Origin: Longilinea sp.
Lineage (GTDB): Bacteria > Chloroflexota > Anaerolineae > Anaerolineales > Anaerolineaceae
DNA: 64,000 nt
Assembly: GCA_039810245.1 (NCBI GenBank)
Contig: JBDHWQ010000023.1
Location: 603 to 64,602 of the forward strand
Reading direction: 5' to 3'
Shown: positions 48,497 through 64,000 of the stretch, piece after piece
How the letters are laid out: every line of letters starts with the position of its first letter
How positions within the stretch are numbered: the first letter of the stretch is position 1
Program-made: the position numbers and the translations under genes
The notes under the pieces: generated by a model
Database searches by the model: none
Told to the model about the DNA's origin: nothing
What the model saw: the letters and a program-made list of their open reading frames with translations, nothing else

Positions 48497-49851
48497 CAGA
48501 CCGGGCTTTCTTCGGTGGCGGCCAGCGCCAGTTTATCGTAATCCGGCAGGATGTCTTCAGCGTCACGGATGGCGGGGCTGAAATAGCCCAGGATACCCAC
48601 CAGGCTGATCAACACGCCGCAGATCACGATCAGCAGGCCCATGCCCGCGCCAGGGCCGGTGCCCACCAGCCAGCCGGCGCTGCGCGCCAGGCCGCTGTCG
48701 ACGCGCATGGCAGGTTCAAGCACAAAATCGGCCAGCGTGCCGCCGATGATCGGCGCGATCGGGTTGGTGAACCACGCGATAAGCCGCCGCGCGGAGAACA
48801 CGCGCCCCTGCAAATCCGGCGCCACCTTTGACTGCCAGATGGCCTGGTTGGAGCCGTTGATGAGGGGCATGGACAGCGCGCCCAGCACGCCGCCGCTGAT
48901 CCAGGCCGGCAGCCCGAACTTAAGCCCCAGGATGGCCGTACCGACAATGCCGGAATAGATCCAACCCCCCAGCACGCCGTGTACCCGGCGGCGAAAGCCG
49001 CCCCACGCGCTCATTACGATGCCGCCCACCACCGCGCCGATGGCCCAACTGGACTGTACTGTGCCGAGGATCAGGCTGTTTTGATTGGTGCGCGCCAGCA
49101 CCATGGGCGTGAACACCGTAAAGGCGATACCCGAGAACAGGTTGCCAAAGAAGAACACCAGCTGCAGCCCCAGCAGGCTGGGGCGCTGGAAGATATAACG
49201 GAAGCCGAACGCGGCCTCTTTCCATACACTGCCCTGAGCGGCCAGGCCTTCCTGCGTGCGCACCGGCTGAGGCACGTGCACTACCAGCAGCGCGCCTACC
49301 GCCAGGAAGAAGGTGATGATATCTGCCAGCAGCAGTCCCTGCAGGCCGATGACCGGCAGCAGCACGCCCGCCAGCACCGGGGCCAGAACCCCCGGCCCGG
49401 CTTCCATCAACGACATCATGCCGTTGGCGCGCCCGAGCTGCTCTTTGGGGATCATGGTGGTGATGGCGGCCGAATAGGCCGGCCACTGGAAGGCATTGCC
49501 GATGCCGTTGAACACTGCCGCAACGTACAGGTGCCAGAACTCCAGCCGCCCGATCAGGATGAGCACAAAAATACCGCTGGTGGCCAGCACCGCCGTCAGG
49601 TCGCTGAGCATCATCATCAGCTTGCGGTTGTAGCGGTCCACCATCACCCCGGCGAAGGGCGAGATGAGCAGGAACGGGGTGATGAAGAACACCTGCAGCA
49701 GGCCCATCGCGGTGGCGCTCTGGGTCTGCTGGTACATCCAGATCGTCAGGCCGAACTGCGACATGCTGGAAGCCAGCACGGAAACAATTTGCCCGATCCA
49801 GATGACGACGAATGCGATCAGGCCGGTGGGTTGGCGGGGGGATTTTTGCAT
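48496..49851 (-). CDS. MFS transporter (EntS/MFS_3-like)
   Basis: Trimmed to 'MQKSPRQPTG'. About 12 TM helices, with 'AGVMVDRYNRKLMM'. Confidence 0.8.
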   Translation of the reverse strand: MQKSPRQPTGLIAFVVIWIGQIVSVLASSMSQFGLTIWMYQQTQSATAMGLLQVFFITPFLLISPFAGVMVDRYNRKLMMMLSDLTAVLATSGIFVLILIGRLEFWHLYVAAVFNGIGNAFQWPAYSAAITTMIPKEQLGRANGMMSLMEAGPGVLAPVLAGVLLPVIGLQGLLLADIITFFLAVGALLVVHVPQPVRTQEGLAAQGSVWKEAAFGFRYIFQRPSLLGLQLVFFFGNLFSGIAFTVFTPMVLARTNQNSLILGTVQSSWAIGAVVGGIVMSAWGGFRRRVHGVLGGWIYSGIVGTAILGLKFGLPAWISGGVLGALSMPLINGSNQAIWQSKVAPDLQGRVFSARRLIAWFTNPIAPIIGGTLADFVLEPAMRVDSGLARSAGWLVGTGPGAGMGLLIVICGVLISLVGILGYFSPAIRDAEDILPDYDKLALAATEESPV

Positions 49852-50210
49852 GCGTCCATTATGCCAAGAACACGGCTGCCTGACAACGTCCATAAGACCA
49901 GGTTTTGGCGACTTTGTCGCCAAAAGCGCAGGGCGCGTATCCATTGTGTGCGATTTTCCTATACCGTAGGGCTTGCAGGGGGCGAGGCTTCGAGGTTCTT
50001 TCCGGCATGGCCGGTTTCTCTCGCCTCGCCCCTACCCATGATTCGAACACGGTTTTTCCCGCCATGCCCAGGGCAAAACGCCGAGCGTCTGAACCAAACA
50101 GGTCCAGACGGTTCAACTATAGAACATTTATGCTATAATTTTGGCAAGCGTATTTCCCACGCGCCAACCCTGGCGTGCATCCTGATAACGAAACGGCTAT
50201 AATAACCCCT

Positions 50211-51638
50211 ATGAGCAAAGTCCAAACCCAGTTTGTCTGCCAGCAGTGCGGGCGCACGTCGCCGCGCATGCTCGGGCGCTGCCCGTCCTGCGGTAGTTAC
50301 GGCTCAATGGTCGAAGAAGTATTTACCCCGCCATCCGCCCCGGCGCAAAGCCCGGTGGCGCGCGCCGGCGTGCTTGGCGGCCGCTCGCAGCCCGTGCGCC
50401 TCAACGAAATCTCCGGCTCGGTCGAAGAGCGCATGTTCCTGCCCATCGGCGAGTTCGCGCGCGTGCTGGGCGGCGGCGTTGTCCCCGGTTCGATTGTGCT
50501 GGTAGGCGGCGACCCTGGCATTGGCAAGTCCACGCTGATGCTGCAAATGGCGGTGGAAATGTCGAACCGGCCGGGCAGCGGCAAGGTGCTGTACGTCTCG
50601 GGTGAGGAATCGGAGCGCCAGATCAAAATGCGCGCCGTGCGCCTGCTATCCGGAGAAAACGGGCAGCACCCCGCGCTCGAAGACCTGTTCCTGGTGACCG
50701 AGACCAACCTTAACACCATCCTCGAGCACGTGGCCGCGGTGCAGCCCAGCCTGCTGGTGGTGGACTCGATCCAGACCATCTATATCCCCGAGCTCAGCTC
50801 GAGCGCCGGGTCGGTCTCGCAGGTGCGCGAGTGCTCCTCGCGGCTGCGCGAGCTGGCCAAAAGCTCGGGCATCGCCGTGTTTGTCATTGGACACGTCACC
50901 AAAGAAGGCGTGATCGCCGGGCCGCGCGTGCTGGAGCACATTGTAGACACGGTGCTGTACCTGGAAGGCGATCGCTACCAGAGCTACCGCCTGCTGCGCT
51001 CGGTGAAAAACCGTTTTGGCGCCACGTCGGAAGTGGGCGTATTTGAGATGCGCGAGCGCGGCATGGTGGAAGTGCCGAACCCGTCTGAGGCGTTCCTGGC
51101 CGAGCGCATGGTCAATGCGCCTGGCTCGGCCATCGCCGTGACGATGGAAGGCACGCGCCCGCTGCTGGTGGAGCTGCAGGGCCTCACCAGCCACTCCAAC
51201 ACCAGCAACCCGCGCCGCACGCCCAACGGGGTGGATATGAGCCGCCTGCTGATGCTGGTGGCTGTGCTTTCGCGCCGCCTGGGCATGAGCCTGGCCGAGC
51301 AGGACGTGTTCGTCAACGTTATTGGCGGGATGCGCATTAACGAGACCGCCGCAGACCTGGCGGTGGCAGCAGCGATCACCTCGTCGATGCGCGATATCCC
51401 GATGAAGGCCGATACAGTGCTGGTGGGCGAGGTTGGCCTGTCGGGCGAGCTGCGCTGGGTGGGGCAGATGAACGCCCGCCTGCGCGAAGCCGGCAACCTG
51501 GGCTTTCGCGCTGCCATCGTGCCGCGACGGGTGCGCCGCGGTGAGCCGTACCCGGATGGCATCCAGGTGATCGAGGCGCGCTCGCTCCAAGAAGCTTTAC
51601 TGTTAGGGCTGGTGGCAGACCCGCGATCCAAAAACTGA
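50211..51638 (+). CDS. radA: DNA repair protein RadA/Sms
   Basis: Trimmed to 'MSKVQTQFVCQQCG'. Has the zinc finger 'CQQCG...CPSCGS', Walker A 'GDPGIGKSTL', 'KNRFG', and a Lon-like C-terminal domain. Confidence 0.92.
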   Translation: MSKVQTQFVCQQCGRTSPRMLGRCPSCGSYGSMVEEVFTPPSAPAQSPVARAGVLGGRSQPVRLNEISGSVEERMFLPIGEFARVLGGGVVPGSIVLVGGDPGIGKSTLMLQMAVEMSNRPGSGKVLYVSGEESERQIKMRAVRLLSGENGQHPALEDLFLVTETNLNTILEHVAAVQPSLLVVDSIQTIYIPELSSSAGSVSQVRECSSRLRELAKSSGIAVFVIGHVTKEGVIAGPRVLEHIVDTVLYLEGDRYQSYRLLRSVKNRFGATSEVGVFEMRERGMVEVPNPSEAFLAERMVNAPGSAIAVTMEGTRPLLVELQGLTSHSNTSNPRRTPNGVDMSRLLMLVAVLSRRLGMSLAEQDVFVNVIGGMRINETAADLAVAAAITSSMRDIPMKADTVLVGEVGLSGELRWVGQMNARLREAGNLGFRAAIVPRRVRRGEPYPDGIQVIEARSLQEALLLGLVADPRSKN

Positions 51639-51658
51639 CCTGCCTGGCCCGGAAACGT

Positions 51659-52984
51659 GTGGGGAAAAACGATAATATGCTGCGCAAACGCGTTCAACTG
51701 GCCATGATCCACCTGGCGGTGGCCATGACCCTGGTGCCGATCAACAGCACCTTAAACCGCATTATGATCAAAGAGATGGCCATTTCCGCCACGCTGGTGG
51801 CAATCCTGGCTTCGCTGCCATACCTGTTTTCGCCCACCCAGGTGCTGATCGGCTCATATTCCGACCGCCACCCGCTGTTTGGCTGGCGCCGCTCGCCCTA
51901 CATTGCCATTGGGCTGGCGCTGTGCGTGCTGGGCGTGGTGCTCTCGCCTCTGGCGGTGTTTGTCATGCCGGTCAACTGGTGGCTGGGGCTGCTGGTTTCG
52001 CTACTGGTATTCGCGGCGTGGGGCATGGGCTTCAACGTGGCCAGCGTGTCATACCTGTCGCTGGCATCCGAGCTTTCGGGGCCGGAAGGCCGCTCGCGCA
52101 CGGTTTCGGTGATGTGGTTTGTGATGATCGCCGGCATCATTGTCACCGCCGCCGCCCTGAGCGGCATGCTGGCAAATTATGATCACGCCGCGCTGCAGCG
52201 CGCCTTCCTGGTTGTGGGCCTCACCTCGCTGGTGTTAGGTCTGCTGGGGCTGGTGCGGCTGGAGCCGCGCACCACCGCGGCCGAAATTGCCGCCGCGGGC
52301 GTGGCGCAGCGCGCTTCGTGGCGCGTGCTGCTGGCCGAAGTGCTGGGCAATCCCGGCGCGCGCGCCTTCTTCATTTATCTGATCCTCATGCTGGCTGCCA
52401 TCCTTGGCCAGGACGTGCTGCTGGAGCCGTTTGCCGGCGAGGCCTTTCACCTGCCGGTGCAGGCCACCACGCGCATCACGTCGATCTGGGGCACGTGCGT
52501 GCTGCTCACCCTGCTGGCCGCCGGCCCGCTGGAGCGGCGCATCGGTAAGCGACGCGTGGCGCAGATGGGCGCGGCCGGGGCCATTCTGGGCTTCGCGCTG
52601 ATCGGCGCCAGCGGTTTCCTGGCGCTCACCACGCTGTTCTATGTTGGCGTGGTGGTGCTGGGGCTGGGCACCGGGCTGGCCACAGTATCCAACCTGTCGC
52701 TCATGCTGGATATGACAACCGCGCGGGTGGGATTGTTTATCGGCGCGTGGGGCGTGGCGGATGCTCTGGCGCGGCTGGTGGGCACCGTGCTGGCCGGCGC
52801 GCTGCGCGACGTGGTAGCACAGGTCACCGGCAGCGCCATTGGCGGTTACGTGAGCGTATTCGCCACGCAGGCCTTGTTGCTGGTCATTTCGCTTGCCCTC
52901 CTGGCGCGCATCGACGTGGGCCGTTTCCAGCGCGAAACGCTCACCCTGGAAGAGCGCGCTGCATTATTGGAAGAAGCTTCTTGA
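51659..52984 (+). CDS. BCD/PucC-like MFS transporter
   Basis: 'LVPINSTLNRIMIKEMAISATLVA' resembles the PucC/LhaA/BCD family N-terminus. About 12 TM helices. The start is either the GTG at 51659 or the ATG at 51677. Confidence 0.7.
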   Translation: MGKNDNMLRKRVQLAMIHLAVAMTLVPINSTLNRIMIKEMAISATLVAILASLPYLFSPTQVLIGSYSDRHPLFGWRRSPYIAIGLALCVLGVVLSPLAVFVMPVNWWLGLLVSLLVFAAWGMGFNVASVSYLSLASELSGPEGRSRTVSVMWFVMIAGIIVTAAALSGMLANYDHAALQRAFLVVGLTSLVLGLLGLVRLEPRTTAAEIAAAGVAQRASWRVLLAEVLGNPGARAFFIYLILMLAAILGQDVLLEPFAGEAFHLPVQATTRITSIWGTCVLLTLLAAGPLERRIGKRRVAQMGAAGAILGFALIGASGFLALTTLFYVGVVVLGLGTGLATVSNLSLMLDMTTARVGLFIGAWGVADALARLVGTVLAGALRDVVAQVTGSAIGGYVSVFATQALLLVISLALLARIDVGRFQRETLTLEERAALLEEAS

Positions 52985-53001
52985 AGGAGAAAGGAAATCT
53001 C

Positions 53002-53517
53002 ATGACTGCTTTGGAACAGGTACTCAACTGGGGGCCGCTGCTGCAAACGCGGCGCAACCATGCCCTCGAACACGCTTCGCTGCAAATTCTGGCGCAGAAA
53101 ATGCCCGGGCTGCGGGCTGCCGGATACTCCGACGCCAACGGCTTCTGGGTGCTGGGCGACGTGCCCATCGAAGACCTGCGCCAGGCCGTGGACGAGGCCC
53201 AGGCGCGGCTGCGCGCCGGCGAGAGCCGCCTGGCCATCCACCCTTTCTGCGGCACCAACTTTGCCGCCACCGGCATCGCTGCCGGCACGGTGGGCTGGCT
53301 GACCATGCTGGGCACGCGCGACCGCCGCGACGCCTTTGACCGCTGGCCGCTGGTGATCAGCCTGGTCACCTTCGCCATGATCGCCGCGCAGCCGCTGGGC
53401 CCCATGGCGCAGCAGTGTTTTACCACCGAGGCCAACCTCGGCCCGCTGCAGGTGGTGGATATCTCACACCAGAAGCGCAACGGTGCTAACGTACTGCGCG
53501 TCAGCACGCGATTTTAA
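53002..53517 (+). CDS. conserved hypothetical protein with His/Cys motifs
   Basis: Track ORF 52747-53517 trimmed to the ATG at 53002, which follows AAGGAGA. Has 'RRNHALEHASLQIL' and 'AIHPFCGTNF' plus two hydrophobic segments. Confidence 0.6.
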   Translation: MTALEQVLNWGPLLQTRRNHALEHASLQILAQKMPGLRAAGYSDANGFWVLGDVPIEDLRQAVDEAQARLRAGESRLAIHPFCGTNFAATGIAAGTVGWLTMLGTRDRRDAFDRWPLVISLVTFAMIAAQPLGPMAQQCFTTEANLGPLQVVDISHQKRNGANVLRVSTRF

Positions 53518-53712
53518 TATTTTGTTGCCTGTCCGGGGCGAAGCGTCGGCGCAGCAACAAAGATACACTTTTCACCGCTCACCTTGCATTTTGGTTAGCC
53601 GCTAGAGAGCGCTTCCAACCAAAATCCGCGATTCGAGAAACAGAATCGCGGATTTTCGTTATTAACCATAGAACAACACACCACGCAGCCCGCACCACTG
53701 AGGATACCTGCC

Positions 53713-54276
53713 TTGAAAGATCTTTCCCGCCCGATCCGCACGGACGAAACCCTGCTGTGCCACATCCAGCGCAGCCGCCACTGGAGCAGCCTGCTCCTGC
53801 GGCTCGCCGGCAGCATCGCCATCATCCTGCTCGTCTGGCGCCTGTTTTACTACCTGAACCGCTCCTTCATCGAGAGCTATATCCGCCCGTGGAGTACCTT
53901 TGGCAGCTCGTGGCTGATCGTCGTTAACCTGTTCCTTTCACTGGTGCCGGCGCTGGTGCTGCTGGCCCTGGCACAGGACTTTCTGTACACCTTCCTCGTC
54001 GAGCTGTCGCTCACCGACCGGCGCATTGTGGGGCGCGTGGGCGGGCTGGTGTGGCTGCGCGAGGTGGATCTGCCGCTGGAGCAGGTGCAGGACGTGCGCC
54101 TGGATCATGGCCACCTGTTGATTGAGCGCGCCGGCGGCCGGCCGCTGCAGGTCTACGGCCTGCCCGGTCCGGAGCGCTTTGTCACCGCGTACCAGGAGCG
54201 CCACCTGGCCCTGCCCGCTCTCGACGACCCGGCCTACGAGCTGCCCGACGCGTTCACCTTCCAGGGCGCGCGCTAG
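53713..54276 (+). CDS. membrane protein with bacterial PH (YdbS/YdbT-like) domain
   Basis: TTG start. Two TM helices, then 'LSLTDRRIVGRVGGLVWLREVDLPLEQVQDVRLDHGHLLIERAGG'. Confidence 0.5.
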   Translation: MKDLSRPIRTDETLLCHIQRSRHWSSLLLRLAGSIAIILLVWRLFYYLNRSFIESYIRPWSTFGSSWLIVVNLFLSLVPALVLLALAQDFLYTFLVELSLTDRRIVGRVGGLVWLREVDLPLEQVQDVRLDHGHLLIERAGGRPLQVYGLPGPERFVTAYQERHLALPALDDPAYELPDAFTFQGAR

Positions 54277-54316
54277 ACACCCGTTGACGTGCGGGCAGGC
54301 GGTGGAGTTTTTCAAT

Positions 54317-54351
54317 CTCCCCTTCTTTCCCCGCGCCGGGGAGAGAAGGAG
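54317..54351. repeat. GC-rich palindromic hairpin element
   Basis: CTCCCCTTCTTTCCCC-GCGCC-GGGGAGAGAAGGAG forms a ~12-bp imperfect stem. A second small hairpin, GAGAGG-TTTT-CCTCTC, follows. Confidence 0.5.
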
Positions 54352-54508
54352 TCAGGGGATGAGAGAGGTTTTCCTCTCCATTTTCCCTTGACCAATCTTG
54401 CTTGATTCCGGTCAAGGATTCTTGTACAATTTAAGAATATAGCGGACCAGCCCCCTTGGGAAAAGTTTGCTTGCAATGACCGTTTCATGAGAGAAAGGGA
54501 GAGGAAGA

Positions 54509-54769
54509 ATGGACGTCATCAAAGTAAAAGCAAACTCCCGCACTGCTGCCGTCGCGGGGGCGATTGCGGGGGTAATTCGGGAGCATAAGCACGCGGAAGT
54601 TCAGGCAATTGGGGCGGGGGCCGTCAACCAGGCCATCAAGGCGCTGGTGCTGGCCAAGGGCTACCTGGCCGATGATGGCATTCCGATTGTGTGCATGCCC
54701 GAATTCGTAGATGTAGATATTGATGGCAAGATCCGCACCGCCATCAAGCTTGTCGTTGAGCCCAAGTAA
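54509..54769 (+). CDS. spoVS: stage V sporulation protein S family protein
   Basis: 86 aa. 'MDVIKVKANSRTAAVAGAIAGVIREHKHAEVQAIGAGAVNQAIKALVLAKGYL' is characteristic of the family. Confidence 0.9.
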   Translation: MDVIKVKANSRTAAVAGAIAGVIREHKHAEVQAIGAGAVNQAIKALVLAKGYLADDGIPIVCMPEFVDVDIDGKIRTAIKLVVEPK

Positions 54770-54857
54770 AAGATTGCCCGGCAAGGATCGCCTGAGGCGC
54801 TGCGTACCGGCTGCTTGGCCGGTGATGTATAGATAGGCTATGCCACAAGTGGACGAA

Positions 54858-54899
54858 AAGAAACAGGGTTTGCCCGGGCAAACCCTGTTTCTCGTTTTT
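54858..54899. terminator. bidirectional rho-independent terminator between convergent spoVS and the kinase gene
   Basis: GAAACAGGGTTTGCCC/GGGCAAACCCTGTTTC forms a perfect 16-bp palindromic stem, flanked by A-rich and T-rich runs. Confidence 0.75.
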
Positions 54900-55560
54900 A
54901 TAACATCACGCTATTGACTTCGTCGCTGGAGAAGACCACTTCTTCCTTACCGGTCAGCTTCTCCTGCACCTTGCGCACGATCAGGTCTAGGTGTGGCGGG
55001 TGCGCCACGTAATCCAGGTCGTCGGCGGGCACGGTGAGCACCGGGCATTGCACAAAGCCGGCAAACCACTTTTCGTACAGCCCGTTCAACCCTTCAAGGT
55101 AATCGGCGCTGATATCGCGCTCGTAATCACGCGCGCGCTGCTGGATGCGCCCCACCAGCGTGGGCACAGAGGCGCGCAGGTAGATCACCAGGTCGGGCGG
55201 GGGCAGAAAGTCGGCCACGGCCTCATACAGCGCGCGGTAGGTCTGCCAGTCGCGCTCGCTCATGCTGCCCTGCAGGTACAGGTTTTGCGCGAAGATCTCC
55301 GCGTCTTCATAAATACTGCGGTCCTGGATCACCGACCCCGGGAACAGGTACAACTGGTGATGGATGCGCAGGCGGTGCGAGAGGAAAAAGGTCTGCGAGT
55401 GGAAGCTCCACGCCGCCATGTTCTGGTAGAAGTCCGACAGGTACGGGTTTTCGGTCACCGGCTCGTAGAACGGCTGCCAGCCCAGGCGCTCGCACAGCAT
55501 CCCCACCAGTGTCGATTTGCCCACGCCAATATTACCTGCCACCGCGATGAATTTTTTCAT
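54898..55560 (-). CDS. deoxynucleoside kinase
   Basis: Trimmed to 'MKKFIAVAGNIGVGKSTLV' (P-loop). Has 'FYEPV..NPYL' and 'DRSIYEDAEIF'. Confidence 0.85.
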   Translation of the reverse strand: MKKFIAVAGNIGVGKSTLVGMLCERLGWQPFYEPVTENPYLSDFYQNMAAWSFHSQTFFLSHRLRIHHQLYLFPGSVIQDRSIYEDAEIFAQNLYLQGSMSERDWQTYRALYEAVADFLPPPDLVIYLRASVPTLVGRIQQRARDYERDISADYLEGLNGLYEKWFAGFVQCPVLTVPADDLDYVAHPPHLDLIVRKVQEKLTGKEEVVFSSDEVNSVML

Positions 55561-55585
55561 GGCTCCCTCACTGCGACCGCGCGCT

Positions 55586-56371
55586 TTATGGAATTTCCCC
55601 GGCCAGCTCTTTCTGAATGATTTGCTGGAAGACCTCAAACGGCTGCGCGCCCACTACCGCCAGCCCGTTGATAAAAAAGGTCGGCGTGGATGAGATGCCC
55701 AGGTTGCTGGCAAAGTCAAAGTCGCCCTGCACCTCTTCACGCGTGCGATTCGTGCTCAGGCATTCCTGGAACTGGCCCAGGTCCAGCTTCAAATCGCTGG
55801 CGTACTGCTCGTACACCGCGTTGCCCAGCTCAGCGCCTTCCAACAGGCGCGCGTGGTACTCGTAGTATTTCCCCTGCTCGCCGGCGCAGTTGGCGGCCTC
55901 GGCGGCCGAGTTGGCGTTGAAGTGGATATTGGACAGCGGAAAGTCGCGGTACACCAGGCGGATCTGGCCGGGAAAGGCTTTTTGCAGCTCCGGCCAAACC
56001 TCGGCGTGCCACTTGCGGCAGTAGGGGCACTCGTAATCGCTGAATTCGATCAGCGTGATCGGCGCGTCGTCCGGGCCGAGGGCGTAATCATCGTCCACCG
56101 GCACGTCATAGCGGCGCACGGCCTGCTGCTGCTGCGCATCCGGCTGCGCGTCGTCCTGCGCGGCGGGCTGGGCAGCGGTGGGCACGCCGCCGCCCGCGTC
56201 GACCGACACGCCGGAGCGGCCGTCGAGGCCCCAGAAGATGTACCCGGCGGCCAGGCCGAGCACGAAGGTGATGGGCAGCAGCGCCGCGAAAAATATCGAG
56301 CGCCGGAAGACGATCTGGTCTTCGCGCCGCGCGCTCGAACGGTCAGGTCGGGGGGTGGGGGAAGCGTCCAT
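55586..56371 (-). CDS. DsbA-family thiol:disulfide oxidoreductase, membrane anchored
   Basis: TM anchor, Gln/Ala-rich linker, and a thioredoxin fold with 'FSDYECPYCRKWH'. Confidence 0.8.
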   Translation of the reverse strand: MDASPTPRPDRSSARREDQIVFRRSIFFAALLPITFVLGLAAGYIFWGLDGRSGVSVDAGGGVPTAAQPAAQDDAQPDAQQQQAVRRYDVPVDDDYALGPDDAPITLIEFSDYECPYCRKWHAEVWPELQKAFPGQIRLVYRDFPLSNIHFNANSAAEAANCAGEQGKYYEYHARLLEGAELGNAVYEQYASDLKLDLGQFQECLSTNRTREEVQGDFDFASNLGISSTPTFFINGLAVVGAQPFEVFQQIIQKELAGEIP

Positions 56372-56414
56372 GCCGGGATTATACCTGAGAAGCCGCGCGC
56401 GGGTGTTCTTTCTA

Positions 56415-56452
56415 GAAAAAAAGACACCCCGGGCGCGGGCGCGTGGGGTGTT
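56415..56452 (-). terminator. rho-independent terminator downstream of the ferredoxin gene
   Basis: On the minus strand, ACACCCC...GGGGTGT forms a GC-rich stem followed by CTTTTTTT. A second perfect 10-bp hairpin, GCAAGGCAGC/GCTGCCTTGC, lies at 56461-56487. Confidence 0.6.
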
Positions 56453-56512
56453 GAATCACAGCAAGGCAGCATTTGCGGCTGCCTTGCATCACTTTTCCGG
56501 ATGGGAGAGAAA

Positions 56513-56686
56513 TTATGCGGGGCCGATTGCGCCGGTGGGGCAGACATCCGCGCACGAGCCGCAATCCTGGCACAGGGCAGGGTCAACGATATAGTTGCCG
56601 TCGTCCTGCAGCGAGATCGCGCCTTCGGGGCATTCGGTTTCGCAAGCGCCGCACTGGATGCAATCGCTGTTAATCATGTAGGCCAT
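56513..56686 (-). CDS. 2x[4Fe-4S] ferredoxin (57 aa; below the ORF-track length cut-off)
   Basis: My own translation gives MAYMINSDCIQCGACETECPEGAISLQDDGNYIVDPALCQDCGSCADVCPTGAIGPA*. It has two CxxCxxCxxxCP motifs, and an AAGGA RBS lies 7 nt upstream. Confidence 0.85.
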   Translation of the reverse strand: MAYMINSDCIQCGACETECPEGAISLQDDGNYIVDPALCQDCGSCADVCPTGAIGPA

Positions 56687-56847
56687 GGGGAACTATCCTT
56701 TCAGAACATGCTTCGGGTGAAATTGAAGACGTTCCGAGGATAGCACAATCAGACAATTCATGTCAACATTTCTTCTTCGTCGTTTGTCACCGAATCCGGC
56801 TGGAATATGTCATATATTTTCTGTCGATTTGATCGCCGCGCGCATCC

Positions 56848-56876
56848 TTGACATCATCCCAAGCTGGCAATATAAT
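56848..56876 (+). promoter_or_regulatory. consensus sigma-70 promoter for tRNA-Asn
   Basis: TTGACA at 56848-56853, a 17-nt spacer, and TATAAT at 56871-56876. The tRNA starts 15 nt downstream. Confidence 0.7.
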
Positions 56877-56890
56877 ACGGGGGCAATTGA

Positions 56891-56964
56891 TCCTCGATAG
56901 CTCAATTCGGCAGAGCGGGCGGCTGTTAACCGCTAGGTTCCAGGTTCGAGTCCTGGTCGAGGAG
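56891..56964 (+). tRNA. tRNA-Asn (anticodon GTT)
   Basis: Cloverleaf folded by hand. Acceptor TCCTCGA/TCGAGGA, D-arm GCTC/GAGC, anticodon stem GGCGG/CCGCT with loop CTGTTAA, T-arm CCAGG-TTCGAGT-CCTGG, discriminator G. CCA is not encoded. Confidence 0.9.
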
Positions 56965-56979
56965 CCTACATCTTCTGCA

Positions 56980-57013
56980 GCCTCGGGCAACGCCGGCCCG
57001 AGGCGATTTTTTT
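56980..57013 (+). terminator. rho-independent terminator after tRNA-Asn
   Basis: GCCTCGGGC-AACGCCG-GCCCGAGGC forms a 9-bp stem followed by GATTTTTTT. Confidence 0.75.
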
Positions 57014-57102
57014 AAGGTTCAGGTTCCACGCCCCCATTGAGGGGATTGTATTCGCGTCCTGGTCGAGGAGCCTACATCTTCCGCAGCCTCGGGCAACGCC
57101 GG
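57014..57102 (+). repeat. degenerate second copy of the tRNA-Asn 3' half plus trailer
   Basis: AAGGTTCAGGTTCCACG, then a ~24-nt insertion, then GTCCTGGTCGAGGAGCCTACATCTTCCGCAGCCTCGGGCAACGCCGG. The last part matches 56950-56996 with one substitution. Confidence 0.8.
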
Positions 57103-57413
57103 TTTGGGACGCCCTCTTTTTAAGATACGAAGCTAGCTTTCCAGGCGAAAAACTGTTGAAATTGAGCAAATTGACTTGCGTTATCTTGATCTGTTGCCCG
57201 TTCTGACTTCTTACCTATTAAAGGATTGCCGGCCTAAGGGACTGCGGAATTATGGCGAACTGTCTGCAGAAGATGCCGATCAGATCGATCCAATCATCAC
57301 CCATCTTGCCACTATGTCCATTGAACTGACTCGTCTTTTTCCTGCTGGACCGGATGACCGTTCGTCCGACAAAAATAAGTGAGGGTTCGCCATATTTTTG
57401 TTACCTTCTTCGC

Positions 57414-57533
57414 TTGACGCCTGCCAAGTAAGGCTTAGAATTAGAGAAGCGATGAGGCTCGCTAGGAAAGTATCGAACCGCCGACCACGGCTGATAGCTT
57501 CTGTCTGTGACCCCACAAGACAGAGGCTTTTTT
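57414..57533 (+). ncRNA. candidate leader / small RNA element E1 (promoter, 5' hairpin, CTGATAGC box, intrinsic terminator) upstream of eno
   Basis: TTGACG at 57414-57419, 16 nt, TAGAAT at 57436-57441. Hairpin AGCGA-TGAGGC-TCGCT at 57448-57463. CTGATAGC at 57491-57498. Terminator stem AGCTTCTGTCT/AGACAGAGGCT followed by TTTTTT, ending at 57533. A related inverted copy lies at 62281-62389. Confidence 0.4.
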
Positions 57534-57557
57534 AATACCTGCCCTCATTCTCGTTGA

Positions 57558-58862
<1,305 letters not shown>

Positions 58863-58884
58863 ACGATCCAAAAACGAAGGAAAG

Positions 58885-58913
58885 AGGGCCGGGCAAAGTG
58901 GCCCGGCCCTTTC
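58885..58913 (+). terminator. possible terminator hairpin after eno
   Basis: AGGGCCGGGC-AAAGTG-GCCCGGCCCT forms a 10-bp stem, but only a short T tract (TTT) follows. Confidence 0.4.
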
Positions 58914-58930
58914 ATAATAGGATTGCGCGT

Positions 58931-59278
58931 ATGAACACCACACTGATTTTGGTGCGGCACGGGCAGACGGATTGGAACCGGGTTGAGCGTTCCCGCGGCC
59001 GGTATGATATATCGCTCAATTCGACCGGCCTCGAACAGGCTCGCCGGATCGCGCAGCGATTGGCGAAGCGCTGGAATCCGGCGGCCATTTATTCCAGCCC
59101 GTTAAGCCGGGCTATTCAAACCGCGGATGCGATTGCTCTCGCCTGTAATCAAAAGGTAATGCCCGAAGCGGGATTAACGGACATCGATTATGGCGCATGG
59201 CAGGGTATGTCACCTATGGAATACCGTGTGATAAACATCTTCGCCAAAACTGGTCTGCAGGGGTTCGGCCTCGAATAA
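58931..59278 (+). pseudogene. 3'-truncated histidine phosphatase (GpmB/CobC-like) gene
   Basis: 'MNTTLILVRHGQTDWN' carries the catalytic RHG motif, and 'IYSSPLSRAIQTA' follows. Family-like sequence stops near 'DIDYGAWQGMSP' (about aa 95 of an expected ~200). The ORF tail overlaps the 3' end of the convergent low-GC MutS-like gene. Confidence 0.65.
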
Positions 59279-60697
59279 CTTGAAGGTTCGCTTTCCACCG
59301 GATTTCCTCTCCGCGCGCAGGAAAATGGTATTTCCTATGCCTCGTTCGTAAAACGAATGGGCAAGCTCATATTGGTGGGTGACAAAAAACACCTTAATTT
59401 TCCGTTCCAGCAGCGCATTTGTAATTTGCCTGCCGATCTCCGAGCCTTCCCTTTCGTTGGTGGCCGCGAAAGATTCATTGAACAGCACCATCGAATTGGG
59501 GGTAACATGGTCGGCAATATCGCTCATCCGGCTGAGCTCTTCGTCCAGTTTCCCGCTTTTCATGGTGACATCTTCTTCACGCTTATAGTGGGTAAAGATT
59601 CCCGTGCTAAGATTCGCGCTGAAGTCGCTGGCCGGAACGTACATTCCACACTGCATCATCAGTTGGGCCAGGCCGATACTTCGCAAAAATGTCGATTTTC
59701 CCCCCTGGTTGGCTCCGGTGATCATCACAACGTCTTTATGATCTGCGTTCACGTCATTGCCGACGACCTTCTGTTTCATGGTCAACGCCAGGCAGACGTC
59801 GTATAACCCATGGAAAGCATGCCTTCGTTCTGCTGCCGGCGCTGGCGAGGGGAAACAGATGGGACTTTCCCACTGCGCGAGCTGCTCGTGCAGATTCAGA
59901 CATCCGACATAAAATGCCAGCTCGATCTGCAGCATTTTGAAGAAGTTGTCGATGTGATCCGCCGACTGCGCAAGCGCGTTGGCAACCAGGTTTATTCCAG
60001 TGTCCTTTAATTTCCCCAAAGCCCGTGCACCGGATTCGTCTCGGTCACTGATATAGAAGAAATATGTAGGATTCTTCCGATTAAGAATGTCCTTCCACCA
60101 TTTCAAATTTTTTGGCCGGCGAAGGATGTAGTTCGTTCCTTCATTCCCTTGCCCTAAATCAGCGCTGATCAGCACGCCATCCCGAAACTTGAGCTCCTTC
60201 AAGTGATTTTCTACAATGGCAAAATAGTCGTCATCCAGCTCTTTTTGAATCATCGTAAAAAATCTGCGGAAACCTTCCGACTCAAATTCACGGGAATATG
60301 TGTCCGCTATCCCTTTTAGCCTACGCAGCAACCCCACAAACATGTTCATCAACTCAAGCGCGCCACTGAGGACGCCGCTTGGATAATACGTAAATATTCC
60401 CATCCAATGCTGCCGTTTATTTTCCATGGCCTCAATCGGGATTTGGAAGATCTCTCGAATGACAGAAGGGAAACGCAAGCAGTCCTTAAGAATATTTTGC
60501 CGGTAAAGGATGGTCTCAATCTCATCCGAGCCTGACAGGACGGCCTTCCAGGCAATATCCATTAGAAAGCGGTCGCCGCGCGCCATCGCGTTGAACAACG
60601 TATTTAATTCCAGGTCCTGGACCAGGGCTTTTTCGTTAACGGGTAAAGGGTGTTCCAGATCAAAGTCCTGGTCGCGAAACATCAGATATGCTTTCAT
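59210..60697 (-). CDS. MutS-family ABC-type ATPase, core + domain V only (495 aa), partner B
   Basis: Walker A is 'ITGANQGGKSTFLRSIG', Walker B-like is 'MVLFNESFAATNEREG', and 'FFVTHQYELA' follows. No mismatch-binding N-terminal domain and no Smr or nuclease C-terminus. Low GC. Its start overlaps the stop of the upstream partner (ATGA at 60694-60697). Confidence 0.8.
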   Translation of the reverse strand: MKAYLMFRDQDFDLEHPLPVNEKALVQDLELNTLFNAMARGDRFLMDIAWKAVLSGSDEIETILYRQNILKDCLRFPSVIREIFQIPIEAMENKRQHWMGIFTYYPSGVLSGALELMNMFVGLLRRLKGIADTYSREFESEGFRRFFTMIQKELDDDYFAIVENHLKELKFRDGVLISADLGQGNEGTNYILRRPKNLKWWKDILNRKNPTYFFYISDRDESGARALGKLKDTGINLVANALAQSADHIDNFFKMLQIELAFYVGCLNLHEQLAQWESPICFPSPAPAAERRHAFHGLYDVCLALTMKQKVVGNDVNADHKDVVMITGANQGGKSTFLRSIGLAQLMMQCGMYVPASDFSANLSTGIFTHYKREEDVTMKSGKLDEELSRMSDIADHVTPNSMVLFNESFAATNEREGSEIGRQITNALLERKIKVFFVTHQYELAHSFYERGIGNTIFLRAERKSGGKRTFKLFEAEPLQTSFGEDVYHTVFHR

Positions 60698-62268
60698 CCC
60701 TGAATACGCTCCTTTAATTGGCTGTACGTAAGGTAATACTTCTCGGCAATACTGATCGCATATGCCAGTCCATCCGATGGTCTCCGGACAATCTTGAAGG
60801 TTCGCAAGGCTGGATTTTCGGGCACAATGGTACTGACCATGCTGACCGTTTTTTCACTCAGAGAAGACAGCTCATCGATAAACGTCACGCATATACACAG
60901 TAGATCCAATGCAATGATCTGCTCCATGATCTTCTTGCTCAGAAAGACCGCATCTTTCAACGTTGTGGAGGTGAAGATTTCGTTCATGATAATGATGCTC
61001 TCTGGCGTTGCATGATTCAATATTTCATGAATCCGCACCAGGTCATCGTGCAGTTTCCCGCGTAAATTTTTGATCTTTTCTTCTTTTTCAAAATGGGTAA
61101 AGAGTTGATCAAACAGAAAAAGCTGGGCTTGCCGGCCTGGGACTGGTAAACCTAAACATGCCAGGTAGTGGAGCTGCCCGAACATGCGGGCGAAGGTGGT
61201 CTTTCCACCTTGATTTGGGCCTGAAATGACCAGGATGCGCTCACTCCCCTTCAAGGTAAAATCATTGCAGACCACTGGCGCACCTTCGGCGACCAGCTTA
61301 TTGGCTAAAGCAATGTCGAAGCCGTCCACTTCGAAAATTTCTTTCGTTTGACCGGAAACTGCCGGGTAACAGAATTTCAGGCCGGCCTGTTTAATTCTTC
61401 GGATGTACTCCAGGTACGCAATATAAAACTGGATCTCACGATCAAAAATACGAATCGTCTCATCCATGAAATGTTGGTGCTTCTCACAATAGGCATCCAG
61501 TGTGGAAAAAACTTCTGGGTACAATCTGGCAACGCAGTCCAGAATTTGCGCTTCTACATGATTGAACCCCGAACCCTTGATATTTTTGACTTTGTAATCC
61601 TTTACAGCCCCCTGTTTGAACTTTTCAAAGGTTCGCTCAACCTCTTCGCTGTAATCACTCTCCAATTCATATTTTCGAACCCCAACGCGGTTCCCTTTAA
61701 TGATGATGGCATAATGAATCGTTGATTGGTCGACCTTGCATTTCGCGGTCTCTTGTTCAAGCGACTGGAAATTCTCCGCATTCACATAGCGGTCCAGGTA
61801 TTCTCGAAAAGCAAGCAAACCACGCGATTTCAGCGCAGCCCGCGACAAATCCCGTCCCAGGTTCCTAATCGCTTCGCAATAAATAACAGCGGCTTCCAAA
61901 AACCAGCCGGCTTTATGATAGTGATAATCAAGCTTGCCGGCCATGCCAAGATACCGGCGGACAATCACCATTTTTTGTGCAAATATATCGATGCGCTTCA
62001 GTACTTCGTCGCTTTCTAAATCCTGCGCGACCTCCTGCCGGTACTGGATGGTTTCAACATTATGGAAAGGCAAATAGAAAAATGGTTTCAGGTTATATTC
62101 TTGCCGGCTCGCGCAGACGGCATCGACGACCTGATCCAAGTTTAGATCAACGAAGAAAGGTGGCATTTCTGCCGCTTGGATTTCCTCATAATTTGGAATG
62201 CGCTCAAAGAGGATGCTTTGGAAGCGCATATTGTTTTTCATTCCGCTCGCAATTTCCTTTAAGTTCAT
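60694..62268 (-). CDS. MutS-family ABC-type ATPase, core + domain V only (524 aa), partner A
   Basis: Walker A is 'ISGPNQGGKTTFARMFG', Walker B-like is 'IIIMNEIFTSTTLKD', and 'ICVTFIDELS' follows. No domain I and no Smr. Low GC. A GAGGG RBS lies directly after the E2 terminator. Confidence 0.8.
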   Translation of the reverse strand: MNLKEIASGMKNNMRFQSILFERIPNYEEIQAAEMPPFFVDLNLDQVVDAVCASRQEYNLKPFFYLPFHNVETIQYRQEVAQDLESDEVLKRIDIFAQKMVIVRRYLGMAGKLDYHYHKAGWFLEAAVIYCEAIRNLGRDLSRAALKSRGLLAFREYLDRYVNAENFQSLEQETAKCKVDQSTIHYAIIIKGNRVGVRKYELESDYSEEVERTFEKFKQGAVKDYKVKNIKGSGFNHVEAQILDCVARLYPEVFSTLDAYCEKHQHFMDETIRIFDREIQFYIAYLEYIRRIKQAGLKFCYPAVSGQTKEIFEVDGFDIALANKLVAEGAPVVCNDFTLKGSERILVISGPNQGGKTTFARMFGQLHYLACLGLPVPGRQAQLFLFDQLFTHFEKEEKIKNLRGKLHDDLVRIHEILNHATPESIIIMNEIFTSTTLKDAVFLSKKIMEQIIALDLLCICVTFIDELSSLSEKTVSMVSTIVPENPALRTFKIVRRPSDGLAYAISIAEKYYLTYSQLKERIQG

Positions 62269-62280
62269 CGGCCCTCACTC

Positions 62281-62389
62281 AAAAACAAAAAAGCCTCTAC
62301 TGGAGCGTGCGCTCAGTAGAGGCTATCAGTCGGGTGACAGTTTTGGCGAGCCTCATCGCCATGGATCTATTCGATTAATTAGAATTATA
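62281..62389 (-). ncRNA. candidate leader / small RNA element E2 upstream of the MutS-like operon (inverted relative of E1)
   Basis: Read on the minus strand: TATAAT (62389-62384), hairpin GGCGA-TGAGGC-TCGCC (62360-62345), CTGATAGC (62329-62322), terminator stem AGCCTCTACTG/CAGTAGAGGCT followed by TTTTTTGTTTTT. The ATG at 62268 is 12 nt downstream. Confidence 0.4.
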
Positions 62390-62521
62390 CTCGAAAACTT
62401 TGCCGATGCACTTTTATTGACATAGGTTTCTGTGTACAACGCACGCTCTGGTTTGGTTTTGTTTTCGGAACCGGTGTCCTACTTTTCTCGATCTGTCTAC
62501 CCTTCGAAGATTTTCCGCAAT

Positions 62522-62588
62522 CCGCCAGGTTCCAGGTTCGAGTCCTGGTCGAGGAGCCTACATCTTCCTGTGCCCCAGACAACGCCGG
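62522..62588 (+). repeat. direct repeat of the tRNA-Asn 3' half plus trailer (att-like)
   Basis: 62527-62567 is identical to 56935-56975 (41 nt, AGGTTCCAGGTTCGAGTCCTGGTCGAGGAGCCTACATCTTC). Looser similarity extends to ...AACGCCGG. Confidence 0.85.
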
Positions 62589-62609
62589 TCCGATGATAGA
62601 CTGGCGAAA

Positions 62610-62700
62610 ACCTAACCCCCCGGCCCCCTTCCCGACCCGGGAAGGGGGAGCGGAAAGCGTTGATGGTTGCGAAACTGCCTATGCTCCGCGGGGGTTAGGT
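62610..62700. repeat. nested GC-rich palindromic structure adjacent to the att-like repeat
   Basis: The outer 11-bp stem is ACCTAACCCCC (62610-62620) / GGGGGTTAGGT (62690-62700). The inner 10-bp hairpin is CCCCCTTCCC (62624-62633) / GGGAAGGGGG (62639-62648). Confidence 0.55.
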
Positions 62701-62884: not shown

Positions 62885-63361
62885 ATGGCTGACACCTACC
62901 CCACCGATCCTACCCCCGACGAGCGCATCCTGGCGGCGGCGGCGCACGCCTCGATCCTCATCCCTATGATGGGCTTCTTCGCCCCGCTGATCATCTGGAT
63001 TTTGCAGAAGGACAAATCGCGCTTTGTGGCTTTCCAATCGCTGCAGGCGCTCGCCTACCAGTTCGCGCTGCTGGTGGGGTACATGCTTGGGATGCTGTGC
63101 TACGGGGTATCCTTCTTCCTGCCGTTCCTGTTCATGATCCCGCTCTCAGGCCAGCACACCAGCTCGCAGGTGGATAGCATCCTAGGGCTGGGCTTCCTGC
63201 TGCCCTTCGTCATGCTGCTGATCGTCGGCCTGGCCGCGCTGGCCGCCATTGTCTATGGCATCGTCGCGGCGGTGAACGCCTTTCAGGGCCGGCCATTCCG
63301 CTACTGGATCGTCGGCGCGCAGGTGGAGCGCTTTACCCGCCCGCAGCCGGCGGCCGCCTGA
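62885..63361 (+). CDS. DUF4870-like small membrane protein
   Basis: 'ERILAAAAHASILIPMMGFFAPLIIWILQKDKSRFVAFQSLQALAYQF' and about 4 TM helices. TATAAT lies at about 62849. Confidence 0.65.
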   Translation: MADTYPTDPTPDERILAAAAHASILIPMMGFFAPLIIWILQKDKSRFVAFQSLQALAYQFALLVGYMLGMLCYGVSFFLPFLFMIPLSGQHTSSQVDSILGLGFLLPFVMLLIVGLAALAAIVYGIVAAVNAFQGRPFRYWIVGAQVERFTRPQPAAA

Positions 63362-63453
63362 TCGCACAGCGCAGGGGCAATTTGCTTGCTTGAAAAATGA
63401 CTTCCGGCGCGCTACCATAGCAGTACGCAATTCGCTTATACGGAGGGGTAGCC

Positions 63454-64000
63454 ATGACGCATCCATCGCGCGCCGGCGCGCTGCGGCTTACCGTGGGGGC
63501 ACTGGGCCTGGTGGTCTTCCTCGCGCTGGTGGCCGGCCTGCTGCTGTTTAACTACACCAGCGGCCTGGCGTTGATCGCCGGGGCGCTGGTGGCTTTAGCG
63601 CTCATCGGCCTGGTGCGCTTCCTGGCGCGGCGCGGCTGGAAAGCCTGGCTGCTGGCAGGGCTGGCGACCGGGTTCGGGCTGGCTGTTTTTCTGGTGCTGT
63701 TGTTGTTTACCCGGGACCGTTATTACAGCGGGTATCCCAACCTGATCTGCCCCATCGCCAGCTATCACGCTGTGGTTGCGCCGGATTCCACCCGGCTTAA
63801 TGGCTTTCAGATCCAGGAGACCGTCACCCTGGTGGAAGGCGGGGAGTTTACCCCACCGGATACCTGGTCCGCGGAAATGGTGGACAACCAGCCCGGCTAC
63901 CGGCTGCCCGCCGGGCAGGCGGCGATTGACAGCCGCGGATTCCTGCTCAAAGAAGCGCGGGTCGACCCATCGGTGACCTGCAATGAAAGCGCGCTGGTCG
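63454..64000 (+). CDS. membrane protein, 3' end beyond the window (partial)
   Basis: Not in the ORF track because there is no stop in the window. My own translation from the ATG at 63454, which follows GGAGGGG, gives 'MTHPSRAGALRLTVGALGLVVFLALVAGLLLF...'. It is open to the window end and has 3-4 TM helices. Confidence 0.5.
   Translation, partial: MTHPSRAGALRLTVGALGLVVFLALVAGLLLFNYTSGLALIAGALVALALIGLVRFLARRGWKAWLLAGLATGFGLAVFLVLLLFTRDRYYSGYPNLICPIASYHAVVAPDSTRLNGFQIQETVTLVEGGEFTPPDTWSAEMVDNQPGYRLPAGQAAIDSRGFLLKEARVDPSVTCNESALV

Follow-up and report, generated by a model that had tools for sequence, protein, structure and literature searches.

A fluoride-riboswitch module next to a tRNA-Asn gene in an Anaerolineae-like Chloroflexota genome: a probable decayed, integrase-less island

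Genes for tRNAs, including the asn tRNA genes of enterobacteria, are classic sites of island integration, and derivatives that are flanked by attachment-site (att) repeats and have no integrase, the cis-mobilizable elements (CIMEs), form a described class. The stretch of 64,000 nucleotides analysed here, from contig JBDHWQ010000023.1 (the window in what follows), raises the question of whether an element of this kind lies behind its tRNA-Asn gene, where two further copies of the 3' part of that gene, in the same orientation, bracket several kilobases of DNA that include a gene for enolase (eno). The host is an uncultured Anaerolineae-like Chloroflexota organism. The locus is probably a decayed, integrase-less island associated with tRNA-Asn, horizontally acquired, CIME-like in structure and loaded with a fluoride-response cargo; the evidence for its parts differs in strength, and these parts are taken in turn.

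The repeats themselves are the starting point. The tRNA-Asn(GTT) gene occupies 56891-56964 on the plus strand (Rfam, 64.9 bits; ARAGORN gives 56891-56966), where the first-pass annotation had placed it, and is the sole tRNA of the window according to both programs. Its 3' part and trailer are referred to as copy 1. A 41-mer spanning the variable loop, the T-arm, the 3' acceptor strand and 11 nt of trailer (56935-56975) recurs exactly at 62527-62567; it is found twice in the window, and the identity ends on both sides. The weaker similarity that had been noticed beyond it is real and extends the repeat to 72 nt at 88% identity (56930-57001 versus 62522-62593), reaching ...CAACGCCGG. This distal copy 3 (62522-62593, plus) consists of tRNA-Asn positions about 39-73 and 38 nt of trailer. 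Directly to the left of the insert stands copy 2 (57014-57107, plus), a degenerate version of the tRNA-Asn 3' part that includes a trailer; its T-arm is indeed interrupted, as first described, by roughly 18-27 nt carrying a CCCC-N5-GGGG hairpin. It shares with copy 3 an exact run of 27 nt, from 57056, in the orientation of the tRNA, and it has a terminator-like tail of its own. The window contains the 26-mer GTCCTGGTCGAGGAGCCTACATCTTC at three positions (56950, 57056 and 62542), and 100 shuffles yielded none; a search of JGI metagenome contigs for it gave 0 matches. Copies 1 and 2 stand in tandem with the terminator alone between them and no element, and copies 2 and 3 share their start point in the tRNA, in the variable loop or the 3' strand of the anticodon stem. 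Copy 3 was also considered as a decayed full-length tRNA, and this was rejected: similarity between the DNA 5' of copy 3 and the tRNA 5' half is no better than in shuffled or genomic controls, so that copy 3 is a true 3' part, beginning at about the 3' strand of the anticodon stem.

The tRNA gene that precedes these copies is intact and well equipped. It has a sigma-70-type consensus promoter, TTGACA-17-TATAAT, at 56848-56876 (plus), with 12 of 12 hexamer positions matching, in a region that is kept in both of the relatives L040 and L042 introduced below. The tRNA sequence, by reading of the sequences, is identical in the window and in these two relatives. Behind it, at 56980-57013 (plus), lies a strong intrinsic terminator, here called type a (GCCTCGGGC-loop-GCCCGAGGC followed by a T-run), and L042 shares this type of hairpin.

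Whether the bracketed DNA belongs to the locus is answered by the same site in relatives, which were found by homologue search with the DsbA-like neighbour, the species-representative genomes being too distant. In L042 (GCA_048223075.1, contig JBAMKT010003987.1), collinear with the window at about 78% nucleotide identity, both flanks are present without the segment, which is the empty site that the first-pass annotation had advised looking for. The left flank (window 48519-57071, L042 14748-6259; 77-85% nucleotide identity) holds RadA, MFS, DUF6391, a 187-aa open reading frame (ORF), SpoVS, dNK, DsbA, a small ferredoxin and tRNA-Asn, and the right flank (window 62918-63998, L042 5856-4708) holds DUF4870 and the next gene. 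Between the flank anchors there are 5.85 kb in the window as against about 400 bp in L042, where the orthologue of the DUF4870 membrane protein, a host-flank gene at 62885-63361 (plus) in the window, lies about 370 bp from copy 2. The relative possesses tRNA-Asn, the same terminator type and copy 2 (about 6311-6200, minus, with the same hairpin interruption) and lacks 57108-62593, so that neither the module nor copy 3 is there. Since L042 is collinear without the module, the module together with copy 3 constitutes an insertion/deletion difference between copy 2 and DUF4870; since copy 2 is present in both genomes, it is older than the divergence of these lineages and did not arise with the module. 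L042 is the empty site, and the insert, 57108-62521 (about 5.4 kb), lies between copies 2 and 3. Copy 2 is thus common to two genomes that are only about 78% identical. The interval between copy 3 and DUF4870 also contains, at 62633-62657, a perfect GC-rich hairpin, CCCCCTTCCCG-ACC-CGGGAAGGGGG, with no T-run on either strand.

Other relatives show that the site is variable. L040, the closest relative found (DsbA 78% identical in amino acids), has the same tRNA, then a terminator and a copy 2 stub (TCCACGTCCCCATTGA), followed by unrelated DNA of 37% GC, and the module is absent within its available 840 bp. The unrelated DNA runs through L040 1-740, to the contig end, with a Hypoth_Ymh (PF09509) gene, and is a different insertion at the hot spot. 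In L041, from another sample, the contig ends inside tRNA-Asn. The different DNA of L040 and the break in L041 together point to a variable site among relatives. Beyond these, the more distant DsbA relatives L051-L056 have no tRNA at the locus, a scan of genome contigs with the DsbA-like neighbour brought up only distant relatives (<=64% amino acid identity) without tRNA-Asn at the locus, and the DUF4870 neighbour found only 29-33% relatives in metagenome contigs.

Base composition was another proposed check, and it too sets the segment apart from its surroundings. The G+C content at third codon positions (GC3) of the flanking host genes (RadA, MFS, dNK, DsbA and DUF4870) is 0.80-0.89, as against 0.70 for eno, 0.62 for the phosphatase gene, 0.60 and 0.54 for the MutS-like genes and 0.44 for the ORF150 remnant, all described below; these cargo values nearly equal those of the copies in the related loci L020 and L024. 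The claim that eno has a host-like GC content does not survive this comparison. The outermost parts of the insert, its arms, have 40% GC (57108-57221) and 46% GC (62428-62521) versus 59.5% to the right of copy 3, and the low-GC tract ends at the repeats. The cargo composition is foreign, which is supportive and not decisive by itself, because some other genes of the window also have lower GC3. Such ORFs lie at 763-3171 (minus; 0.49) and 24692-27220 (minus; 0.64), the second being a P-type ATPase homologue, and they reflect either a patchy genome composition or further acquired regions.

What the insert carries becomes apparent from two fluoride riboswitches that the first-pass annotation had overlooked. 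Both aptamers belong to Rfam RF01734, with 37.3 and 36.9 bits against a gathering threshold of 34. The eno leader (57414-57533, plus) comprises a promoter-like site (57414-57441), the aptamer (57439-57510) and a terminator hairpin with T-run (about 57497-57533); the leader of the MutS-like pair (62287-62369, minus) comprises the aptamer (62310-62369) and a terminator hairpin with T-run (about 62287-62323). The hairpins and T-runs overlap the 3' ends of the aptamers in both leaders, and a terminator overlapping the aptamer end is the usual layout of a fluoride-induced ON switch. The genes form two convergent units, one of riboswitch, eno and truncated phosphatase and the other of riboswitch and two MutS-domain-V ATPases. 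Homologous leaders stand upstream of the MutS-like pair in six other loci (34.5-37.8 bits). Enolase is the classic fluoride-inhibited enzyme. It is frequent in fluoride-riboswitch operons (PMC11139923), and the crcB motif has been reported upstream of mutS-like genes (PMC2864571). Given the riboswitches, and given that both gene classes are riboswitch-linked in the literature, the bracketed DNA constitutes a compact two-unit fluoride-response module and not housekeeping DNA, and its eno is imported cargo of that response. Under fluoride stress both leaders would read through their terminators and raise the levels of enolase and of the MutS-like pair; fluoride induction of both units is what the leader architecture predicts.

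The cargo genes may be followed from left to right. The left arm (57108-57217), unique and of 40% GC, has no match in any fetched locus. It is followed by the ORF150 remnant (57218-57373, plus), the C-terminal 51 codons of a 150-aa gene, which marks the left edge of the donor-type homology and is 84% identical to the intact gene of related clusters. The eno gene (57582-58862, plus) is intact and encodes a 426-aa enolase, recognized by Pfam and as a full-length equivalog match to TIGR01060 (658 bits, cutoff 300); it shares 93-96% amino acid identity with the eno products of related clusters, and an exact-sequence lookup of the protein returned no record. The next gene (58898-59278, plus) belongs to the histidine phosphatases of the phosphoglycerate-mutase-like superfamily and is truncated: it covers profile positions 1-92 of 194, and its homology stops at 59214, the start of a deletion relative to L020 that is taken up below. 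On the opposite strand lie the overlapping genes of the MutS-like pair, the first of 524 aa (60694-62268, minus; identified by Pfam, NCBIfam and PDB comparison) and the second of 495 aa (59210-60697, minus), the last codons of which are altered by a deletion. The right arm (62428-62521), likewise unique, with 46% GC, begins where the donor-type homology ends, at 62427.

The MutS-like pair is recognizable as to its ATPase part. The match to a known domain, MutS domain V, is limited to the C-terminal parts, and PDB matches are confined to residues about 295-480. Scores against the MutS1 and MutS2 equivalog models (62-80 bits) stay below the cutoffs of 400-642, and PADLOC gives marginal matches only. 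The first protein belongs to a large, strongly conserved family, with at least 120 sequence clusters at about 63-70% amino acid identity or more; its source names include Anaerolineae, Firmicutes, Desulfomonilaceae and Limnocylindrales, and one source labels it 'MutS domain protein, family 5'.

The provenance of this cargo can be read from related clusters in other genomes. The closest homologues of the first MutS-like protein (89%, 83%, 82% and 78% amino acid identity) all lie on contigs with the same convergent architecture, namely a riboswitch, the MutS-like pair, a small HEAT/zinc-ribbon ORF, sometimes a histidine phosphatase, and eno with its riboswitch; crcB, a DUF190/CBS protein, P-type ATPases or a Na+/H+ exchanger are often near. 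Positions 57218-59214 and 59217-62427 of the window are about 90% identical in nucleotides to the donor-type loci L020, L021 and L057-L064. The window lacks 787 bp that are present in L020-type loci, comprising an 87-aa HEAT ORF and the 3' half of a 218-aa phosphatase gene (full-length in L020), so that its copy carries an internal deletion, which also changed how the second MutS-like gene ends. At 57218, its left edge, the donor-type homology cuts into ORF150, which is intact in L020-type loci (L020 8527-8979, minus; L057 10001-10453) and is preceded there by a third riboswitch-like element of 33 bits, just under the threshold (L020 9058-9127, minus). The ORF150 protein has no Pfam or NCBIfam match and forms three sequence clusters in a collection of 5.8 billion proteins; it may represent a lineage-restricted gene of the fluoride regulon. 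The donor-type cluster always lies in the same chromosomal setting, between flanks of about 48% GC, and no tRNA, tRNA fragment or integrase was found near it. From the 90% identity, the cut left edge and the constant chromosomal context it follows that the window carries, as cargo, a part of a cluster that is native to a relative of lower GC.

Some further features of these clusters may be recorded. Homologues of ORF150 were followed toward an intact, integrase-bearing parent element; none emerged, the L057-type cluster being chromosomal. The borders of the donor-type cluster (L020 1243-2567; L058 5215-6267) contain insertion-sequence-like fragments, with a weak rve_3 match in one ORF, and a ParA-like gene, and in one sample of the donor lineage a DDE_Tnp_1 transposase is inserted just 5' of ORF150. 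A riboswitch-like stretch at L057 2065-2136, 81% identical to the leader of the MutS-like pair in the window, lies 5' of a 303-aa ORF and a P-type ATPase.

How, then, did the module come to lie between the repeats? On the reading that we consider probable, a segment of about 5.4 kb would have entered beside the pre-existing pseudo-copy 2, which would have served as the attachment site, through a tyrosine-type integrase acting within the 27-41-bp core common to the tRNA 3' end and the copies, with copy 3, a second and clean 3'-half copy, arising at the far end as a result. Later deletions would have removed the remainder of the element, recombination genes included, the break in ORF150 being one deletion endpoint. 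The present product would be two fluoride-inducible units, each made up of a promoter, a riboswitch with a terminator that fluoride binding is predicted to override, and the genes behind it, with an extra enolase (the phosphatase being broken) and the MutS-like pair. Site-specific entry by an integrase and the direction of transfer are both what we infer from this arrangement. Among the features by which islands are recognized, the locus displays a tRNA with a distal repeat of its 3' end, an empty site and a deviating composition, and has no internal integrase; as in CIMEs, att-like flanks enclose DNA without recombination or conjugation modules. The first-pass annotation had likewise spoken of past integration at tRNA-Asn. 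The part of that proposal which stands is a foreign insert bounded by att-like repeats; copy 2, already present in L042, is ancestral and drops out of it, and the integrase would have acted at the pseudo-copy.

General support comes from viral contigs, in which fragments of tRNA-Asn occur that could belong to such a recombination system. Five contigs from IMG/VR (L046 3589-3612, L047 6617-6640 and L048-L050) carry a partial tRNA-Asn from the anticodon loop to the 3' end, with the same 24-mer of T-arm and acceptor; ARAGORN reports no tRNA there. An ORF with a weak, below-threshold Phage_integrase match is situated about 50-120 bp away in the two contigs that were inspected. The fragments probably represent attachment sites (attP or att) of temperate viruses whose hosts are unrelated and AT-rich. 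No element cognate to the insert was found.

Several observations weigh against the island reading. Neither an integrase, as the first-pass annotation had already remarked, nor an excisionase or other mobility gene is present in the insert, all ORFs between the repeats being assigned. The insert adjoins the pseudo-copy 2 and not the intact tRNA, and the cargo, cut arbitrarily from a chromosomal cluster, is no unit with ends of its own. No relatives of more than 95% identity, by which the event could be dated or polarised, were found, and beyond copy 3 the intergenic DNA does not align with that of L042, which leaves the right boundary approximate. The window also holds neither a second eno nor a fluoride exporter. 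The most specific difficulty is posed by the trailers. Those of copies 1 and 2 are of the L042 type (GCCTCGGGC...GCCCGAGGC), here type a, and that of copy 3 is type b (GCCCCAGAC...), with a truncated terminator of which the 3' arm is missing. The copy 3 trailer (TGCCCCAGACAACGCCGGTC...) is 92.8% identical over 69 nt to the trailer of the intact tRNA in L040, a closer match than any it has among trailers of the locus type to which the window belongs. If there had been a simple integration into copy 2, the trailer of copy 3 would be old host sequence; its type b needs either an ancestral locus with both types or a later gene conversion. The searches of the window in which crcB was sought also covered the 87-aa HEAT ORF and more riboswitches, and none was found; besides the tRNA-derived direct repeat, the insert ends have no inverted repeats or target-site duplications of at least 11 nt, such as would betray a transposon.

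The trailers bear observations of their own. Window 62568-62593 corresponds to L040 834-808 (minus), the L040 terminator GCCCCAGAC...GTCTGGGGC behind the intact tRNA-Asn, and types a and b differ by compensatory changes in the terminator stem. The trailers resemble those of their genome-mates more than their own orthologues, a likeness which suggests local conversion or duplication.

This last likeness favours an entry that required no integrase, in which a fragment of an L057-like donor would have been inserted after uptake, by homologous or illegitimate recombination, between locally duplicated units of the tRNA end. The tandem of copies 1 and 2, with a terminator and no element between them, the lack of an integrase in the insert, and the left end of the cargo, which falls arbitrarily within a gene whose cluster elsewhere belongs to the chromosome, all agree with such a course. 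Yet the low-GC ends of the insert coincide with the repeats on both sides, and copies 2 and 3 share their start position in the tRNA, as is expected of att sites. The arms of 110 and 94 bp, moreover, resemble neither the host nor the donor cluster and so suggest vector DNA, and copy 3, with a trailer of another lineage type than copies 1 and 2, is no simple local duplicate. Integrase-free insertion is rather unlikely.

The empty site could also have the opposite polarity, the island having been present in the common ancestor of the window and L042 and lost from the latter by recombination between copies 2 and 3. Such an exchange yields exactly the order seen in L042 (tRNA, terminator, copy 2, trailer, DUF4870), and the tandem of copies 1 and 2 speaks for an older history of such events at the locus. 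An older insertion, however, should be more ameliorated than cargo GC3 values of 0.44-0.70 beside 0.80-0.89 indicate, and it should have diverged more than a cargo that retains 90% nucleotide identity to the L057-type cluster when the hosts of the window and L042 stand at about 77-80%. The closest relative found, L040, is without the module as well in the DNA available. Loss from L042 is an unlikely account, slightly more so than insertion without an integrase.

A bolder version of the island reading, in which the segment would be a still mobilizable CIME-like cassette that shuttles the fluoride regulon among Anaerolineae with a tRNA-Asn-specific integrase, as yet unseen, supplied in trans, copy 2 being a decoy landing pad that spares the tRNA, strikes us as quite improbable. 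Least credible of all is an assembly artefact, a metagenomic chimera joining the fluoride cluster of another organism through tRNA-derived repeats: the joining repeats are short (27-41 bp), the window resembles a contig of a metagenome-assembled genome (the records of its own proteins point to one contig of 67.5 kb) and the cargo composition is unlike that of the flanks. Yet a chimera would take two independent mis-joins, both leading back to one syntenic place in the host; with no more than 90% identity to the abundant L057-type organism, the cargo does not stem from that organism's reads, and it has private deletions and is separated from the repeats by unique arms.

The decayed island that is favoured here has parallels in known systems. 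Like tRNA-targeted islands with tyrosine (P4-like) integrases, for example the high-pathogenicity island of Yersinia, it has a tRNA-Asn target, foreign DNA ending in a repeat of the 3' end, an atypical composition and absence from the syntenic site of a relative. It differs from them in that there is no integrase, that the proximal repeat is an older pseudo-copy past the terminator, that the cargo represents a chromosomal cluster in truncated form, and in its Anaerolineae-like Chloroflexota host. With the CIMEs of the ICESt1/ICESt3 family of integrative and conjugative elements (ICEs) of Streptococcus thermophilus it shares att-type flanks, the lack of recombination and transfer genes and tandem att copies at a single site, tRNA-associated or at a gene's 3' end; no cognate ICE or integrase is known for the lineage, however, and the likeness is structural only. 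As to the RNAs, the leaders pass the gathering score of the fluoride riboswitch regulon (RF01734), have terminator platforms and precede gene classes already reported (PMC2864571, PMC11139923); they are ordinary, and the mobile, tRNA-flanked setting is the sole new aspect. The nearest counterpart in content is GI3 of Enterobacter cloacae FRM, a genomic island for fluoride resistance with riboswitch-controlled eno and gpmA (PMC5533749). Both are acquired islands with a fluoride-riboswitch set that includes eno and a gene of the phosphoglycerate-mutase family, yet GI3 also has crcB, ppaC, uspA and transposase flanks (PMC5533749), whereas the window has no exporter or pyrophosphatase, a broken phosphatase, the MutS-like pair and flanks of tRNA-derived repeats.

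The locus reveals no new mechanism: the type of island is known, the cargo is uncommon, and the left boundary is a conserved pseudo-tRNA copy. It indicates that in uncultured Chloroflexota a fluoride-riboswitch regulon travels horizontally as one block and lands at a tRNA-associated hot spot. Part of this block is the uncharacterised MutS-domain-V pair, whose link to the riboswitch dates from 2010. The occupied locus of the window and the empty one of L042 form a clean pair for studying the transfer of fluoride regulons, and copies of eno in such genomes may be fluoride-inducible accessory genes and not housekeeping ones.

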